From the NCBI GenBank assembly GCA_963735055.1, contig CAVTJN010000005.1, positions 5,804-69,803 on the forward strand: DNA of 64,000 bases, read 5' to 3'. This DNA is from an uncultured Chloroflexia bacterium. GTDB taxonomy: Bacteria; Chloroflexota; Dehalococcoidia; Dehalococcoidales; UBA2162. A program made the position numbers and the translations under genes. The notes under the pieces were generated by a model that saw only the letters and a program-made list of their open reading frames with translations, had not been told where the DNA came from and ran no database searches. Position 1 is the stretch's first letter. Each line of letters starts with the position of its first letter. Below, piece after piece: positions 5,706-63,523 of the stretch.

Positions 5706-6189
5706 CCCCGAAGCCTGCGAAGGGCAGGACTAGGGCAGAACAAACCAAAATCGCTTGCCCTGACGCATGGACAATCCTAAAAAGAGGCATAGTGGCGCTT
5801 GTGTCTGCCCCAAATAGGGCAAATTCGGAAGATGACGCTGACCAGTTCGTAGTACCTCAAAGATAACTGCGGCTACTAGTTCCCCCCATATAACTGCGGC
5901 TGGGCATTAACCACCAAAAACCTCTTTCCTTTCGGGGTTGCTGGCTGGATGGCATGTCTGACCGTCTGGCGGCAAGGTTCGGAGTACAGGCAAAACCTTC
6001 AAGAATATCTAGCTGTACCCTATGTTTTCAGCCAAAGAGGGCAGGCTAGGGGGCTACCATGCCCAGCGACCTTTGTGTCCGGTGTAACCATACCCTCCCG
6101 CAGTTGAATGCTAAAAAAGGCAGGCTAGAATCGGTGATCTGTCAATAGAGGCGAATCGCGGGTAGTGTATCAGTTTGAATAGCGGGTCT

Positions 6190-57548: not shown

Positions 57549-57577
57549 TTGACATACCCGTAAGGAAGTGCTATCCT
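57549..57577 (+). promoter_or_regulatory. Promoter TTGACA-N17-(TGc)TATCCT
   Basis: TTGACA at 57549-57554 and TATCCT at 57572-57577, ~80 nt before the ATG at 57658. Confidence 0.6.
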
Positions 57578-57657
57578 CGTCGCGATTTGCCGGTACCCAC
57601 GAGGAGACACCGCCAGCAAAAGCAAAGAGGCCACACGAGGTCGGGGAGGATACAGGG

Positions 57658-59469
57658 ATGAATAAGAAATTGTTGCGTTTGTCTTTAGTCTGTGTTTTGT
57701 CAGCCGTCGTGCTCCTGGCAGCCTGTAGCACCCCCGCAGCCACCACGACACAACCATCCACCACCGCGCCAGCGTCCCAGACTCCAACCGCGACCCCTCA
57801 GGGTACAACCCCCACAACAGCAGAGAAGCCCAAGTACGGCGGAGTCATCAGCATTCCTCTCAGCGCAGACATAGTCAACTTCGAAGAGATGTATGGTTGG
57901 CATCCCGGCGCCGCGCTTCTCAAGCTGACTAATGAAGAGCTTTTGACCGGCGACTGGAAGATCGGGCCCGCTGGCACCAATGAGGTGGATTGGGCGATCA
58001 GAGGCACCGACCGGTTCGCACAGAAGGACGGAGCGCTGGCTGAAAGCTGGGAATACCCGGAAATAGGCACCGCCATCTATAAGATCCGTAAGGGCGTACG
58101 ATGGGCGCTGAATCCCAAGAGCGAGGCCAGCCGCCTCGTGAACGGCCGCGAGCTAACGGCTGAGGATATTGTCTGGACGCTCCAGACATACATTACTTTC
58201 CCCAGGGCGTACCTCTACTCTCAGCCCGGTCTGAAGGAAGCTAAGATAACGGCCCTTGACAAGTATACGGTGCAGATCAAGGTCGCGCCTGAGTACTTCG
58301 AACCCGGAATCAGTCGCTTCCAGGATTTCGCGAGTATCGTACCCAAGGAAGTAGTCGACAAATACGGTTCGATGCAAGATTGGCGGACCTCGGTTGGTAC
58401 TGGTGCATTCATGCTGACCGACTTCATTGCCGGCAGTTCGGCGACGTTTGTAAGAAACCCGGGTTACTGGCAGACCGACCCCACAGGGCCGGGCAAAGGG
58501 AATCAACTGCCCTATCTGGACGGAGTCAAGTACATAATCATCACCGACGCCTCGTCCCGTGAGGCCGCGTTCAGAACCGCTAAGATCGACATGTATACTT
58601 CTGCTGATTGGGAGACAGGCGCCCGGCTCACCAAGGAAAACGCCAAGCTGGTCTACAAGAAGCACGCGCAAGATACCACGCCCAACAACACGATGATGAG
58701 AACGGACAAAGCTCCGTTCAACGACAAGCGAGTCCGGCGCGCGCTGATGATGGCAACTGATTTCGAGTCAATCAAGAAGGACCTATTCGGCGGAGAGGCC
58801 GATATTATTACCTGGCCGGTGACTCCGGTCAGGGAATACAAGGCGGCCTATCTTTCCCTTGAAGAATCGCCCGCTTCAGTCAAGGAGCTGTACACCTACA
58901 ATCCGACCAAAGCAAAGGCACTCCTCGCCGAAGCCGGCTACCCCAACGGCTTCAAGACCACGGTGACTGCCCAGAACCTCGCTGAGCGAGTGGACTACTA
59001 CTCGGTGATCAAGAACATGTGGTCCAAGGTTGGAGTTGAAATTACGATCGACTTGAAGGAACTCGCCGTTTGGGAGTCCATCACCGGAGCGAGGACGTAC
59101 GAAGGCATGATTCACAGCCACACCGCACCGTGCGGAGGCATATACCGGATGATCAATTACAGGGGGGTAGGCCGCACAAACGGAAGCTACATCGATGACC
59201 CTTACGTGGAAGAGATGTATCCCAAGATCCAGGCGGCATATATCCAGAATCCGCCCGAAGCCGACCGCCTCCACAAAGAGCTGATGAAGTATGTGCTGGA
59301 CCAGGCCTGGGTAATCCCCACCCCGCTGCCCCCCCTGTACCACATATGGTGGCCGTGGGTGAAGAACTTCCGGGGGGAACTCAGCCCCGGCTATGACAAC
59401 ACCAACAAGTTCACGTACTTCACGTGGATGGACCAGGACCTCAAAGAGCAGATGACCGGTAGAAGGTAG
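57658..59469 (+). CDS. Family-5 substrate-binding lipoprotein
   Basis: Start at MNKKLLRLSLVCVLSAVVLLAACSTP after GGGGAGGA. Thr/Pro linker, PKYGG, NPGYWQTDPTGPGKGNQLPYLD. Confidence 0.9.
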   Translation: MNKKLLRLSLVCVLSAVVLLAACSTPAATTTQPSTTAPASQTPTATPQGTTPTTAEKPKYGGVISIPLSADIVNFEEMYGWHPGAALLKLTNEELLTGDWKIGPAGTNEVDWAIRGTDRFAQKDGALAESWEYPEIGTAIYKIRKGVRWALNPKSEASRLVNGRELTAEDIVWTLQTYITFPRAYLYSQPGLKEAKITALDKYTVQIKVAPEYFEPGISRFQDFASIVPKEVVDKYGSMQDWRTSVGTGAFMLTDFIAGSSATFVRNPGYWQTDPTGPGKGNQLPYLDGVKYIIITDASSREAAFRTAKIDMYTSADWETGARLTKENAKLVYKKHAQDTTPNNTMMRTDKAPFNDKRVRRALMMATDFESIKKDLFGGEADIITWPVTPVREYKAAYLSLEESPASVKELYTYNPTKAKALLAEAGYPNGFKTTVTAQNLAERVDYYSVIKNMWSKVGVEITIDLKELAVWESITGARTYEGMIHSHTAPCGGIYRMINYRGVGRTNGSYIDDPYVEEMYPKIQAAYIQNPPEADRLHKELMKYVLDQAWVIPTPLPPLYHIWWPWVKNFRGELSPGYDNTNKFTYFTWMDQDLKEQMTGRR

Positions 59470-59780: not shown

Positions 59781-61568
59781 TCAGTCTTGTTCCGCCGGGT
59801 GGCTGCGGCCTGACTTGGTCAGTGTGGCCCCTCTGATCACGTTTGTCTTGTGCGCGGTTCGGAAATACGACATCCCGAAAGAGTAGCCCGGTATGCTCCC
59901 AGACACGATAATGTGGATGTCTTCCGGGTTCACCACGGGCACCTTTCCACCTGGTCTGAGTGACTCCTTGATGACGGGCACGCGGTGCTGCGGGACCGCA
60001 TCGTGCGGATAGAAGATGTCTATATCCGGGGGCTTGGTGTTAATTCTGTCGTTTATGCCCTGTATTTCTTGCCCGCTGAGTTCTTCGTACGGCACCTTCG
60101 TCGTCTGGTACAGGTAGTCTCGGAGGCTTCGCTTGGTCTCAAAACCAAGGCGCGTCAGCATGATGGCGAACTCCGGGTGAATGACGATGATGTGCTTCCG
60201 GAGATGGGCCGCCGGGTTAGCCACGCCAAGCTTGTACCGACCGAAGGTGCCCCGGTCAGCCGCCACGTCTTTCACGATCTCGCCAAGGACCGCCCTGGCG
60301 TCCCAGGGCTCAACCACGCCTCCGCCATAGATCCTGATGCCGGTGCCGCCTCCGCTCGTGACAGTGTCCACGGTCACGCAGCTGTCATCCGGTCGATATT
60401 CGAGGTCGGCATTGAACGTTTCCCACGGGCTCTGTTCCACGTTCTCGGCGAAGACATAGAAGGTGTGCGCCGATGGGCGGCCGATGAGGGCCATGTCGAT
60501 CTCTCCCGGCCACAGGTAGCCGATGTTAATCAGGCTTAATCTCACGGCACGGCCGATGGTGTTATTGGCCCGCCAGCCATGACCAAGCAGACCGACTCCG
60601 CAGTTCATCCCAATCTCCCTGGCAATCGGGCCGCTTACCATCATGGACAGAGTGAAGGACCCCTCCGAGCTCATCATATGAGTGAAAGTGCCCTCTTCAA
60701 CCAGGCATTCCATCGCCGTGATTATCACCGGCAAGTACTCGGGCCTGGCCCCCGCCATCACCGCGTTGATGGCCATCTTTTCGACAGTGGCGATGCCGTT
60801 CCGGTACGGCACCCGTCCGATGACTTCGCCTGGAGCACGATTGGTCCCGGCCAGCATCCGTCTGACGGCGCGTGCCGTCGGAGGCAACAGGGGCAACCCG
60901 TCTCCCATGTGCTTATCGAGGTACAGCTGGTTGAACAGCTCTATGGCAGACTCATAGCTCTCGGCAGTGACTCTGACTGTCCTGGCCGGCTTCTTGGAGG
61001 CCTTCAGCTTCGGATTCCTCTCTTCAGGTGTCAGCGGCCGGGTCAGGGCGTCAATAATGCTGTCAATGGACGCTTCGGCAACCGGTCTGATCGCTTCCAC
61101 AGTCAGCCGGTTCGGGTAGTAGTCTATCGAGGGAAGGCTCACGATGCGCAGGGCAGGCATCCCGGCATCCTCGGCCGACATCCTGGCAGTATGAGTAGCG
61201 TTGTCACCGACCACGAAGACACCGGGTTTACCGAGTCTTTCCAGGGCGACCACCTGCCGGCACTGGATCCAGCCGCCCATCCCGTTGTCGCCGACCCCGT
61301 AGATGAAGGTATCCACCTCCCTCTTTGCTTTGGCCGCCGCCTCGGCGTCTCCCCAGACAAGCCGCGTGATCGTTGCGGTGGGATACCTCTGCTTCAGCAG
61401 CTCTTCTACTGCGATGCAGAAATTGTCCCCGCCTTTTTTGCCGTCCCAGATGATGCCGATCTTTTTGCCGGCGAGGTCCGGGACACGTTGACTGACCAGG
61501 CCCGAAGGCGCCGGGACCTCGATTACGCCCTGCGGGTTGAGACACACCAGTGACACTTGCTTCTTCAT
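59781..61568 (-). CDS. Large uncharacterised protein (595 aa), paralogue A: an N-terminal ~190-aa alpha/beta domain plus a ~400-aa C-terminal domain of unknown function
   Basis: Long ORF with good codon structure. Conserved block GDGLPLLPPTARAVRRMLAGT...VEKMAINAVMAGARPEYLPVII shared with the divergent neighbour. Confidence 0.7.
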   Translation of the reverse strand: MKKQVSLVCLNPQGVIEVPAPSGLVSQRVPDLAGKKIGIIWDGKKGGDNFCIAVEELLKQRYPTATITRLVWGDAEAAAKAKREVDTFIYGVGDNGMGGWIQCRQVVALERLGKPGVFVVGDNATHTARMSAEDAGMPALRIVSLPSIDYYPNRLTVEAIRPVAEASIDSIIDALTRPLTPEERNPKLKASKKPARTVRVTAESYESAIELFNQLYLDKHMGDGLPLLPPTARAVRRMLAGTNRAPGEVIGRVPYRNGIATVEKMAINAVMAGARPEYLPVIITAMECLVEEGTFTHMMSSEGSFTLSMMVSGPIAREIGMNCGVGLLGHGWRANNTIGRAVRLSLINIGYLWPGEIDMALIGRPSAHTFYVFAENVEQSPWETFNADLEYRPDDSCVTVDTVTSGGGTGIRIYGGGVVEPWDARAVLGEIVKDVAADRGTFGRYKLGVANPAAHLRKHIIVIHPEFAIMLTRLGFETKRSLRDYLYQTTKVPYEELSGQEIQGINDRINTKPPDIDIFYPHDAVPQHRVPVIKESLRPGGKVPVVNPEDIHIIVSGSIPGYSFGMSYFRTAHKTNVIRGATLTKSGRSHPAEQD

Positions 61569-61742
61569 CTCCTCTCACCCCTTCCTGGAAACCTTCGTGA
61601 TGTGCCGACATTATGCCATTATTGGCTTAACTTTTCTACCGAAAGAGGCCGGCAGGCGGGCTTTGCATCCGGGGGCAAATGCATGTTACCCTTTGCGCAG
61701 CCGGCAAGGCCGGAAAGAGACCAACGGAGGATAGAGACTGAA

Positions 61743-63523
61743 ATGGCAAGCAGGAAAGTGACGGTCTTGAACCCGAGAGGTAGACCTGGCCCGATACAAC
61801 TGGTGCCGATGGCGCCACGGCTCAAGACCCTTGAAGGCAAGACAGTCTACATCGTTGACATGAATTTCCCGCGGACACACCAGTTCTTTGAAGAAATGCA
61901 GAAGACGCTCGCGAACAGATACCCCAGGACGATCTGGGTCCTCAGGGTGAAGGTGGGCACTTACTTCAACAATGACCCAGATCTGTGGGCCGAGATCAAG
62001 GCCAAAGGCGACGCAGTGATCATCGGAATCGGGCAGCTGGACACGTGTGCGCCGTCGGTCATCATCTTCTGCTCGATACTCGAGAAGCTAGGGCTGCCGA
62101 CGGCGCCTGTCGTCACCCAGGCGTTTCCCGACCTCATCAGGAACTTCGCCTACAAAAAAGGAATGCCCGGGCTGCGGTTCACCTTCGTTCCCCATCCCTT
62201 CGCAAACCGGCCGATCGAGGCACACCGACGGTATCTGGAAGGCGACGATCCGATCACCGGCAGACCAGTCATCGACGAAATCGTGTCGGCGTTGACCGCG
62301 CCTGCGACAGACGAGGAAACGAGGACAGGTACCGTCGAGAGGCCGGTGCCGAGGTTGCTGGGCCCGGACAGTCCGGAGCACCTGGAGCGCCTTTTTCTTG
62401 AGAGCGGACTGACTGACTACCTGCCGATCATACTTCCGACCGAAGAACGAGTCGCCGAAATGCTCGGCGGAACGAAGCACAAACCGGAAGAAGTGATTGG
62501 CCGGATGCAGCCCATTCCTCCTCACGAGGCCTGGGAGAACGCAACCAGGCAGCTTGGCGCCCGATCGGTGGGGAGAGGACCCCGGACCGAACACTCTCCG
62601 GTTGCCATGCAGCCCTCCCCCCCCACGAAGCCTGGGAATACACTGTTGAGCATGTCGCAATCAATGCCGTAATGGCAGGAGCCAGGCCGGAGCATCTCCC
62701 AGTAATATTGGCCATAGCTTCTACAGGGGTAACCTCGCTGTTCAGTTCCGCCACCTCCATGTGTAGGATGGTGGTCACCAACGGGCCAATTCGCAAAGAG
62801 ATAAATATGAATTTCGGGCTAAGTGCATTAGGTCCCTTCAACCAGGCTAACGCTGTCATTGGCAGGGCTTGGACACTCATGTCTAAGAATCTGGGCGGAG
62901 CAAGACCGGGTGAAACGTATCTGGGCGACATAGGCAACAACACTAACTACAACAATCTGTGTTGTGCAGAGAATGAAGAGGCATTACCTGAAGGATGGAA
63001 TCCCCTGCACGTACAAAAAGGCTATCAGCCGGAAGAGAGCGCTATCAGCATTCTGGGCGGGTGGAGCCTGCTTAACTATGCTGCATATAAACCGCATCCG
63101 CACCACCAGATTATGAAGGAGCAATTGACAAGTTTTGAGACCAGTGGAGCCGGCACTCATCATACTCTTGGACTAAACCCGGGAACTCAGGCTACTTTCA
63201 TATTGAGTCCGATTACTGCCGGAGATATGAAGAATGAAGGCTTCGATAGCAAGGAGCAGTTGGGCCGGTGGATAAAAGAAAACGCCCACATGACCGTCTG
63301 GACCTATTGGGCTGCCATGCCCGATGATCTAGAATCTGCCCGGGCAGGGGTTGAGCCGTTTGCCTCCTGGTTGAAACTCCCGCCGGGAGCGAAAACAACA
63401 CATCCGCTAATCCTTAATAATGCCACGGTTGAGATCATGGTGGTGGGAGGAGGCGCCGATGCGTTCTGGATGGCCGGAGACTTCAATTGTATGGCAACAG
63501 CCTCCGTGGATAAGTGGAGGTAA
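61743..63523 (+). CDS. Large uncharacterised protein, paralogue B (frameshift at the C8 run 62617-62624 and a 34-codon internal insertion)
   Basis: Track ORFs 61557..62672 and 62672..63523. Start taken at MASRKVTVLNPRG (ATG 61743, GGAGG upstream). The two frames rejoin as ..MQPSPPHEAWEYTVEHVAINAVMAGARPEHLPVIL.. if the C8 run is read as C9. Confidence 0.7.

Follow-up and report, generated by a model that had tools for sequence, protein, structure and literature searches.

What might two neighbouring proteins of a selenoprotein family do once selenocysteine (Sec) has been lost from both? The question is raised by a divergent gene pair in a 64,000-nucleotide stretch of DNA (hereafter the window) from an uncultured Chloroflexia bacterium placed by GTDB in the Dehalococcoidales (UBA2162; assembly GCA_963735055.1, contig CAVTJN010000005.1, forward-strand positions 5,804 to 69,803). 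The two genes, referred to as paralogues A and B, encode fusions of an N-terminal UGSC-family domain with a C-terminal 'partner' domain, an architecture abbreviated UGSC::partner. Our preferred interpretation, to which we assign a probability of about 0.55, is that A and B constitute a selenium-independent, probably heteromeric, non-redox enzyme or substrate-handling pair derived from selenoenzymes. An initial annotation of the locus described two large, divergently transcribed paralogues of about 590 amino acids separated by a shared control region of 175 bp. The description is accurate for A, which is intact at 595 amino acids, whereas B is split between two frames by a break at a run of eight cytosines (C8), and the divergent spacer exists but is 174 bp long. 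Coordinates are collected in Table 1.

The N-terminal domains of both proteins belong to the UGSC family, as the initial annotation had suspected. Against PF24696 (UGSC), for which the gathering cut-off is 25 bits, A scores 59.2 bits over residues 25-176 and B 87.5 bits in a Pfam search. In contrast, both proteins fall below the 125-bit cut-off of the NCBIfam equivalog NF041046 (A, 45.4 bits; B, 61.3 bits), a model of 147 positions for proteins of ∼150 amino acids, whereas A and B are fusions of ∼595 amino acids. The motifs quoted for the two proteins, GVGDNGMGGWIQC in A and GIGQLDTCAPS in B, are present, as are the LP(L/I)(L/I)PPT block and the AINAVMAGARPE(Y/H)LPVI block of the C-terminal domain. 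The UGSC motif itself is indeed not intact, reading N-G-M-G in A and L-D-T-C in B as opposed to the U/C-G-S-C or U-x-G-C of relatives. In A, neither Sec nor Cys is found at the redox positions, N95 occupying the Sec column and G98 the Cys column of the paralogues with Ala at position 274, while in B Leu (L95) occupies the Sec column, C98 of the UxxC motif is retained and position 274 is likewise Ala. Thus, unlike typical members of the UGSC family, neither protein possesses Sec or a CxxC-type pair. In the AlphaFold2 (AF2) model of full-length A (predicted local distance difference test, pLDDT, 89.2; predicted template modelling score, pTM, 0.91), the N-terminal domain has a beta-alpha-beta fold in which the motif lies between strand 87-92 and helix 99-111, as assigned by DSSP. 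Relatives of A comprise at least 120 protein clusters with identities of 71-94%. A and B are 28% identical over 550 columns and are distant paralogues belonging to different clades of the family, not the products of a recent duplication.

Canonical GDUGSC or UxGC motifs are carried at the same alignment column by paralogues in the same genome. This 3.33-Mb genome contains ∼29 UGSC::partner loci, and each of 22 full-length copies (574-600 amino acids) has exactly one in-frame TGA, located between residues 74 and 109 and falling in a single alignment column. A hairpin 3' of the TGA is observed in 18 genes, with an AGUU loop, 86% pairing and compensatory changes in four of six pairs, a level of covariation reached in 0 of 500 shuffles; the default RNAalifold consensus picked another, weak helix, and the hairpin, which resembles a Sec insertion sequence (SECIS) element, was seen by eye and then tested explicitly. 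In addition, genes for tRNA-Sec (anticodon TCA), selB and selA are adjacent at C21:56026-59677 (C numbers denote contigs of the assembly). Combined, the single TGA column, the covarying hairpin and the tRNA-Sec, selB and selA genes indicate that the TGA codons of the paralogues encode Sec. The initial annotation had asked whether homologues ever contain Sec or Cys at the UGSC position, and the answer, 22 TGA paralogues together with Cys forms, is strongly positive. Sec motifs are of three types: GDUGSC, present in a frameshifted locus outside the 22 (C19:6695-8471), G(S/G)U(D/P/I)GC, and (C/V/A/I)WU(S/H)GA; among individual paralogues, C4:697559-699175 reads GSUDGC and C6:177623-179350 reads AWUSNA. 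The Sec paralogues share with A and B the two-domain architecture, a length of 575-600 amino acids, the invariant residues and the C-terminal motifs but, unlike these two, possess an in-frame UGA followed by a SECIS-like hairpin and, in most cases, Cys274.

The expansion is not confined to this genome, as the same-genus and several same-family genomes contain it as well, mostly with one TGA per copy. In public protein sets the family amounts to 4120 clusters at 50% identity, in which many representatives begin just past the Sec position, as a result of gene calls truncated at the TGA, while the full-length ones are either Cys forms (GDCGSC) or free of a redox residue. For a genome of 3.3 Mb, the 22 full-length TGA copies constitute a very large expansion of a single selenoprotein family.

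The family tree resolves three well-supported clades. A is the sister of the GDUGSC selenoprotein at C19:6695-8471, in a clade that also contains Cys forms, B is the sister of four UxGC selenoproteins, and the third clade consists of 18 WU-type selenoproteins. Since A and B are nested in separate Sec-containing clades, the redox residue was lost independently in each. The GDUGSC locus, on the minus strand, is the closest paralogue of A at 44-49% identity, and its frameshift lies just after '...ITISGESY', outside any homopolymer.

Loss of the residue at position 95 is associated with loss of a second residue in the partner domain. Cys274, at a helix N-cap in the sequence NAVMAGC, is present in 29 of 29 sequences of the WU and Cys-form groups, all of which have U or C at position 95, and is missing in all 16 sequences, spread across three clades, that do not have U/C95. 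It is also mostly missing where a Cys sits three residues after Sec. The coupled loss suggests that residues 95 and 274 may be joined in a selenenylsulfide or disulfide bond between the two domains, Cys98 being a candidate alternative partner. In contrast to these variable positions, R28, E110, D223, T261, R340 and E375 are invariant in 49 of 49 sequences, A and B included.

The UGSC domain is also related, at the profile level, to selenoprotein B of the glycine/sarcosine/betaine reductases and D-proline reductase (GrdB/GrdF/GrdH/PrdB; PF07355). PF07355 matched neither A nor B at E ≤ 0.01, and only faint matches to NCBIfam PrdB/GrdF/GrdB models (E 0.02-0.14) were detected, in one or two of 64 family members. 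As the top matches among GrdB database homologues all ended at Sec, a GrdB profile was built by reading through the TGA in 13 genes of same-class genomes and compared by hhalign with a family N-domain profile of 49 sequences. The profiles matched over 90 columns, Sec aligned to Sec, with a probability of 94.4% and an E-value of 9.4e-8; the single-sequence version of the comparison was weaker (E 0.0019, probability 14%). This alignment indicates that the UGSC domain shares the Sec-bearing module of selenoprotein B, although it is not itself a member of PF07355. The matching region comprises the final ∼90 residues of GrdB and the second half of the UGSC domain, in both of which strand, Sec, helix, 'LE+GIPT' and strand follow one another. 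In contrast, the first 340 residues of GrdB are unmatched in UGSC::partner proteins, the C-terminal domain of the family shows no similarity to the GrdB profile, and A and B do not have Sec. A pyruvoyl proprotein of the GrdE/PrdA type was not recognised among the annotated neighbours of A and B, where no systematic search was made. The genome encodes a GrdB-type selenoprotein B of its own (C10:113800-115179, minus strand; PF07355, 477 bits), whose motif ...VDGVVLTSTUGTSTRCGSALAKEIEKVGIPTAHV... shows, by eye, the same signature as ...AVVFGVGSUDGCAAGLAEFARTIEDYGIPTAP... of the family. Presence of this gene implies that the organism probably also has a glycine/betaine-type reductase.

The partner domain, which the initial annotation could not place, is likewise without a match here. 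Pfam and NCBIfam searches at E ≤ 1 with every member of two alignments (54-64 members) returned nothing on this domain, and it found no match when PDB sequences were searched with the family profile. Modelled alone with AF2, the domain is predicted with confidence (pLDDT 92.2, pTM 0.93), and the best Foldseek hits of this model in the PDB, class I fumarase and cyanuric acid hydrolase, reached an E-value of 0.043 and a template modelling (TM) score of 0.2, which was treated as no match. Full-length A gave weak PDB matches only (TM ∼0.17), to generic flavodoxin/Rossmann-like domains and through its N-terminal domain. Consistent with the original suggestion of an uncharacterised family, no match to a characterised enzyme family was found. 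The conserved blocks of the partner domain, DGLPxxPPT, TVEKxAxNAVMAG, GRA, AENE and PW, are present in both A and B.

Other arrangements of the two domains are also observed. The partner domain occurs as a free-standing protein of ∼350 amino acids, one example of which (351 amino acids; Logan contig L063:345-2755) is surrounded by four solute-binding genes of the TctC family, with a truncated UGSC gene call two genes upstream of it, a split fusion in a carboxylate-uptake context. The database protein P0176 and one other alignment member carry a fused domain resembling the catalytic chain of ferredoxin:thioredoxin reductase (FtrB; PF02943, 1.4e-16; NCBIfam 'FtrB family double-selenoprotein', 5e-21), which hints at one possible electron input. 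A match to FtrB was sought in the genome under study and none was found.

The A/B pair is embedded in a cluster that is conserved across several phyla. Orthologues of A and B from this cluster are 58-92% identical, and A orthologues with 58-84% identity are found in metagenome-assembled genomes (MAGs) labelled Dehalococcoidia/Dehalococcoidales, Acidobacteriota/Acidobacteria, Deltaproteobacteria/Desulfobacteraceae and, in one case, Chloroflexia. Of 32 A loci, 19 have B next to A, 21 contain one or two DHDPS-like genes and ∼14 a URO-D-like gene, while genes for solute-binding proteins (SBPs), cupins and MarR regulators are variable. In the present genome, B is followed downstream by a DHDPS-like gene (PF00701) and then a URO-D-like gene (PF01208). 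The neighbours named in the initial annotation, tandem MarR genes, a cupin (a weak match), an SBP_bac_5 gene and the DHDPS-like gene, were all recovered. Scanned for promoters and terminators, the locus gave no signal stronger than shuffled sequence; this includes the one weak sigma-70-like match in the A/B spacer (61638-61610, minus strand). Tandem A-like genes are observed in some MAGs of Dehalococcoidia and Acidobacteriota (L038:8001-11531, L039:8001-11552 and L034:1410-4620), the two members of a tandem being 58-65% and 40-59% identical to A; those of L038 and L039 lie downstream of a B-like gene and represent further duplicated forms of the cluster. Elsewhere in the genome, family copies adjoin short-chain dehydrogenases (seven genes), family III CoA-transferases (five) and SBP_5 genes (five, at five family loci), as well as a 3-hydroxyisobutyrate-dehydrogenase-like gene, a split transketolase and a thiamine diphosphate (ThDP) enzyme. 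The genetic setting of the family is catabolic throughout, and it is on this gene context that the designation 'catabolic or activating enzyme' is based.

These observations can be assembled into a model for the family and for the A/B pair. In typical members, Sec or Cys at the helix N-terminus, position 95, would most likely be the redox nucleophile that attacks a substrate bound in the C-terminal domain, and Sec95 would be resolved by either the Cys three residues on (UxxC) or Cys274 of the C-terminal domain. A and B each originated within a Sec-containing clade, and both lost residue 95 and Cys274. Retention of R28, E110, D223, T261, R340 and E375 in both proteins is read as retention of the substrate site, and the two invariant arginines suggest a carboxylate substrate. 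A and B would consequently keep a substrate site, plausibly for a carboxylate, in the absence of selenol or thiol redox chemistry, and would work together, alongside two aldolase-like proteins of the DHDPS type and one URO-D-like protein, in a catabolic cluster that is horizontally mobile. From the comparisons described above we infer that residues 95 and 274 have a redox role, that A and B form a heteromer, that their substrate is a carboxylate and that their redox chemistry has been lost.

The reading of B also depends on the nature of its frame break. Frame 0 is open from the ATG at 61743 until a stop at 62672 and frame 2 from ∼62415 to 63523, and addition of one base within the C8 run (a -1 shift) fuses the two cleanly into a product of 593-594 amino acids. 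At the break, orthologue codons are TCN CCN CCN CAY where the window reads TC+C7, contigs 95-99% identical from two metagenome runs (X3 and X4) have one extra C at the C8 site, and B frames in same-genus genomes are open over 616-617 amino acids. The best-matching metagenome run, X1, has no reads covering the C8 run. The two halves of B are separated by a single 1-nt difference, with no other stops or decay in either part. Together, the in-frame orthologues, the same-genus genomes and the near-identical contigs point to a homopolymer miscall or a strain-specific lesion of very recent date as the likeliest cause of the break, and not to a designed recoding site; of the two, a miscall is favoured.

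Immediately 5' of the break lies an imperfect direct repeat of 35-36 nt (62505-62540 and 62607-62641), the copies of which encode MQPIPPHEAWE and MQPSPPHEAWE. The duplicated peptide, together with a variable linker of ∼22 residues, is in frame in 13 of 14 B orthologues, L037 being the one without the duplication, which indicates an old coding duplication of the B clade and not an inserted element or bypass signal. The duplication occupies the same loop in which the WU-type selenoprotein paralogues carry a different insertion of 35-45 residues that includes KKGDxVxFxP, and the loop preceding the TVEK strand is a hot spot for clade-specific insertions.

Several considerations weigh against the model of a cooperating, redox-free pair. 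Adjacency of A and B is not proof of a complex. The correlation between positions 95 and 274 is built on few independent lineages, and Cys-form relatives have both C98 and C274, so that an 'alternative resolving Cys' is not a clean rule. The C98-type Cys of B is present in most, although not all, B orthologues, and B may therefore keep some thiol chemistry. A is also found without a detectable B in ∼13 of the 32 loci, which is what would be expected if A and B were separately acting homomers, brought together only through a shared pathway and forming no complex, and the Sec-containing paralogues of this genome are likewise mostly single genes and not mixed-clade pairs. We nevertheless consider independent homomers unlikely, as many of the loci with A alone lie on contigs that are short or truncated, the two proteins, though members of different deep clades, are found side by side, usually divergent or adjacent, in MAGs of several phyla, and the same double loss has occurred in both. 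Absence of both redox positions could alternatively signify that A, B or both are catalytically dead and serve as scaffolds, regulators or substrate-binding chaperones for a Sec paralogue or for the aldolase-like neighbours, and the 71-94% identity of A across MAGs of several phyla is what a tight interaction constraint would give. Such a role seems distinctly improbable, however, since every invariant polar residue is kept in A and B, which argues for a retained ligand or catalytic site, and since the cluster occurs where no Sec paralogue is nearby.

The frameshift in B may also be genuine, leaving only A functional in this strain. In its stronger form this would make B a true pseudogene in a decaying locus, with A alone or neither gene functional, a reading that we regard as doubtful but deserving of serious attention. 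The deposited sequence does break the frame at 62617-62624, and further family loci in the assembly are broken (C19:6695-8471, C3:19895-21043, C4:287496-289258 and C7:92724-94476), at least one of them outside any homopolymer. Against decay, the lesion is a lone 1-nt change in the C8 run unaccompanied by a further stop, the frame is open in near-identical contigs, in same-genus genomes and in every orthologue, and the assembly, with long contigs among its 23, would be compatible with long-read sequencing, in which miscalls of this kind are frequent. Far less credible is programmed recoding, by -1 frameshifting or transcriptional slippage, or a mobile or bypassed element in the 102-nt segment between the repeats. 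C CCC CCC is formally a slippery heptamer, but the corresponding orthologue codons, TCG CCG CCC and TCT CCT CCC, are not slippery, and as the run is not conserved a programmed -1 frameshift at C8 was rejected as the principal explanation. The segment is flanked by the 35-36-nt repeat and contains inverted repeats; it is nonetheless translated, with lengths that vary by multiples of three, and the same duplicated peptide and linker are in frame in 13 of 14 orthologues, so that a mobile element, an intron and translational bypass were rejected. The selenium-independent, heteromeric pair thus remains the interpretation that we prefer.

Table 1. Coordinates of the features described. Positions are those of the window unless an assembly contig (C) is named.
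Feature	Position	Strand	Basis
SBP_bac_5 solute-binding protein, convergent with A, variable cluster neighbour	57568..59469	plus	Pfam
Paralogue A, UGSC::partner-domain fusion, 595 amino acids	59781..61568	minus	One unbroken open reading frame (ORF)
A, C-terminal 'partner' domain, ∼400 amino acids	59781..60998	minus	AF2 domain model
A, residues 271-274, MAGA; Ala274 versus Cys (MAGC) in Sec/Cys-bearing relatives	60747..60758	minus	Alignments
A, N-terminal alpha/beta domain, ∼residues 1-190, UGSC family	60999..61568	minus	Pfam, DSSP, hhalign versus GrdB
A, residues 91-99, GVGDNGMGG, degenerate UGSC motif	61272..61298	minus	Alignments
Divergent A/B intergenic region, 174 bp	61569..61742	.	ORF coordinates
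Paralogue B, first part, frame 0: UGSC-type N-terminal domain, start of C-terminal domain, duplicated loop of the B clade	61743..62624	plus	PF24696, translation
B, residues 95-105, GIGQLDTCAPS	62025..62057	plus	Alignments
B, in-frame duplication MQPIPPHEAWE-(∼22 variable amino acids)-MQPSPPHEAWEY	62505..62641	plus	In 13 of 14 B orthologues read
B, C8 run, one base short versus orthologues; frame change	62617..62624	plus	Orthologue codons, near-identical contigs, same-genus genomes
Paralogue B, second part, frame 2: rest of C-terminal domain, including VMAGARPEH (Ala274)	62624..63523	plus	ORF translation
DHDPS-family (DapA-like) gene, start; 353 amino acids in the genome	63699..64000	plus	Pfam
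TGA paralogues (examples), contigs C3 and C4	C3:45575-47323; C3:51480-53246; C4:61046-62806; C4:71129-72892; C4:285630-287408; C4:693736-695460; C4:697559-699175		
TGA paralogues (examples), contigs C6 and C7	C6:177623-181131; C6:182623-184176; C6:189466-191268; C7:90477-92249; C7:99681-106268; C7:129329-131068; C7:244837-246588; C7:268993-270717		
TGA paralogues (examples), contigs C11 to C20	C11:25764-27533; C17:72967-74736; C19:583303-585081; C20:8943-10691		

Parts of this family have been recorded previously. A UGSC-containing selenoprotein, and a 'UGSC/Unknown_1' fusion to a conserved unknown domain, were reported in 2008 by Zhang and Gladyshev (PMC2398784), and in aquatic metagenomes UGSC proteins rank with the selenoproteins of highest abundance (PMC2398784). 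That fusion is possibly the same as the UGSC::partner architecture of A and B. A 2026 review lists the UGSC family among selenoproteins whose functions are largely uncharacterised (PMC13188914), and 46-49 selenoprotein genes have been reported in MAGs of Dehalococcoidia (PMC13326102). New here are the Sec- and Cys-free A/B pair in its conserved cluster, the observation that positions 95 and 274 are lost together, the profile-level link to GrdB and the size of the expansion in this lineage.

The two-domain form couples a GrdB-type Sec module to a confidently modelled domain for which there is no solved structural relative, and the co-loss of residues 95 and 274 provides a concrete, testable prediction of a redox pair in selenoenzymes. 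For annotation, the family illustrates that standard gene callers cut most of its members at the TGA, splitting the genes. A broader proposal, which we advance tentatively and consider unlikely to hold in full, is that UGSC::partner proteins represent an unrecognised GrdB-like class of selenoenzymes with a catalytic domain of new fold, that the lineage encodes more than 20 substrate-specific reductases of this class, and that A and B are a Sec-free, heteromeric and non-redox derivative of it, the redox pair having been given up independently in two clades. As A and B do not depend on the machinery for Sec insertion, they are the simplest members to produce in E. coli, to crystallise and to screen, and they still have the invariant residues of the putative substrate site. 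If the broader proposal is correct, the A/B pair would offer a tractable, Sec-free route to the structure and substrate class of the family as a whole, and the expansion itself would be the selenium-based equivalent of the batteries of reductive-dehalogenase genes in Dehalococcoides.

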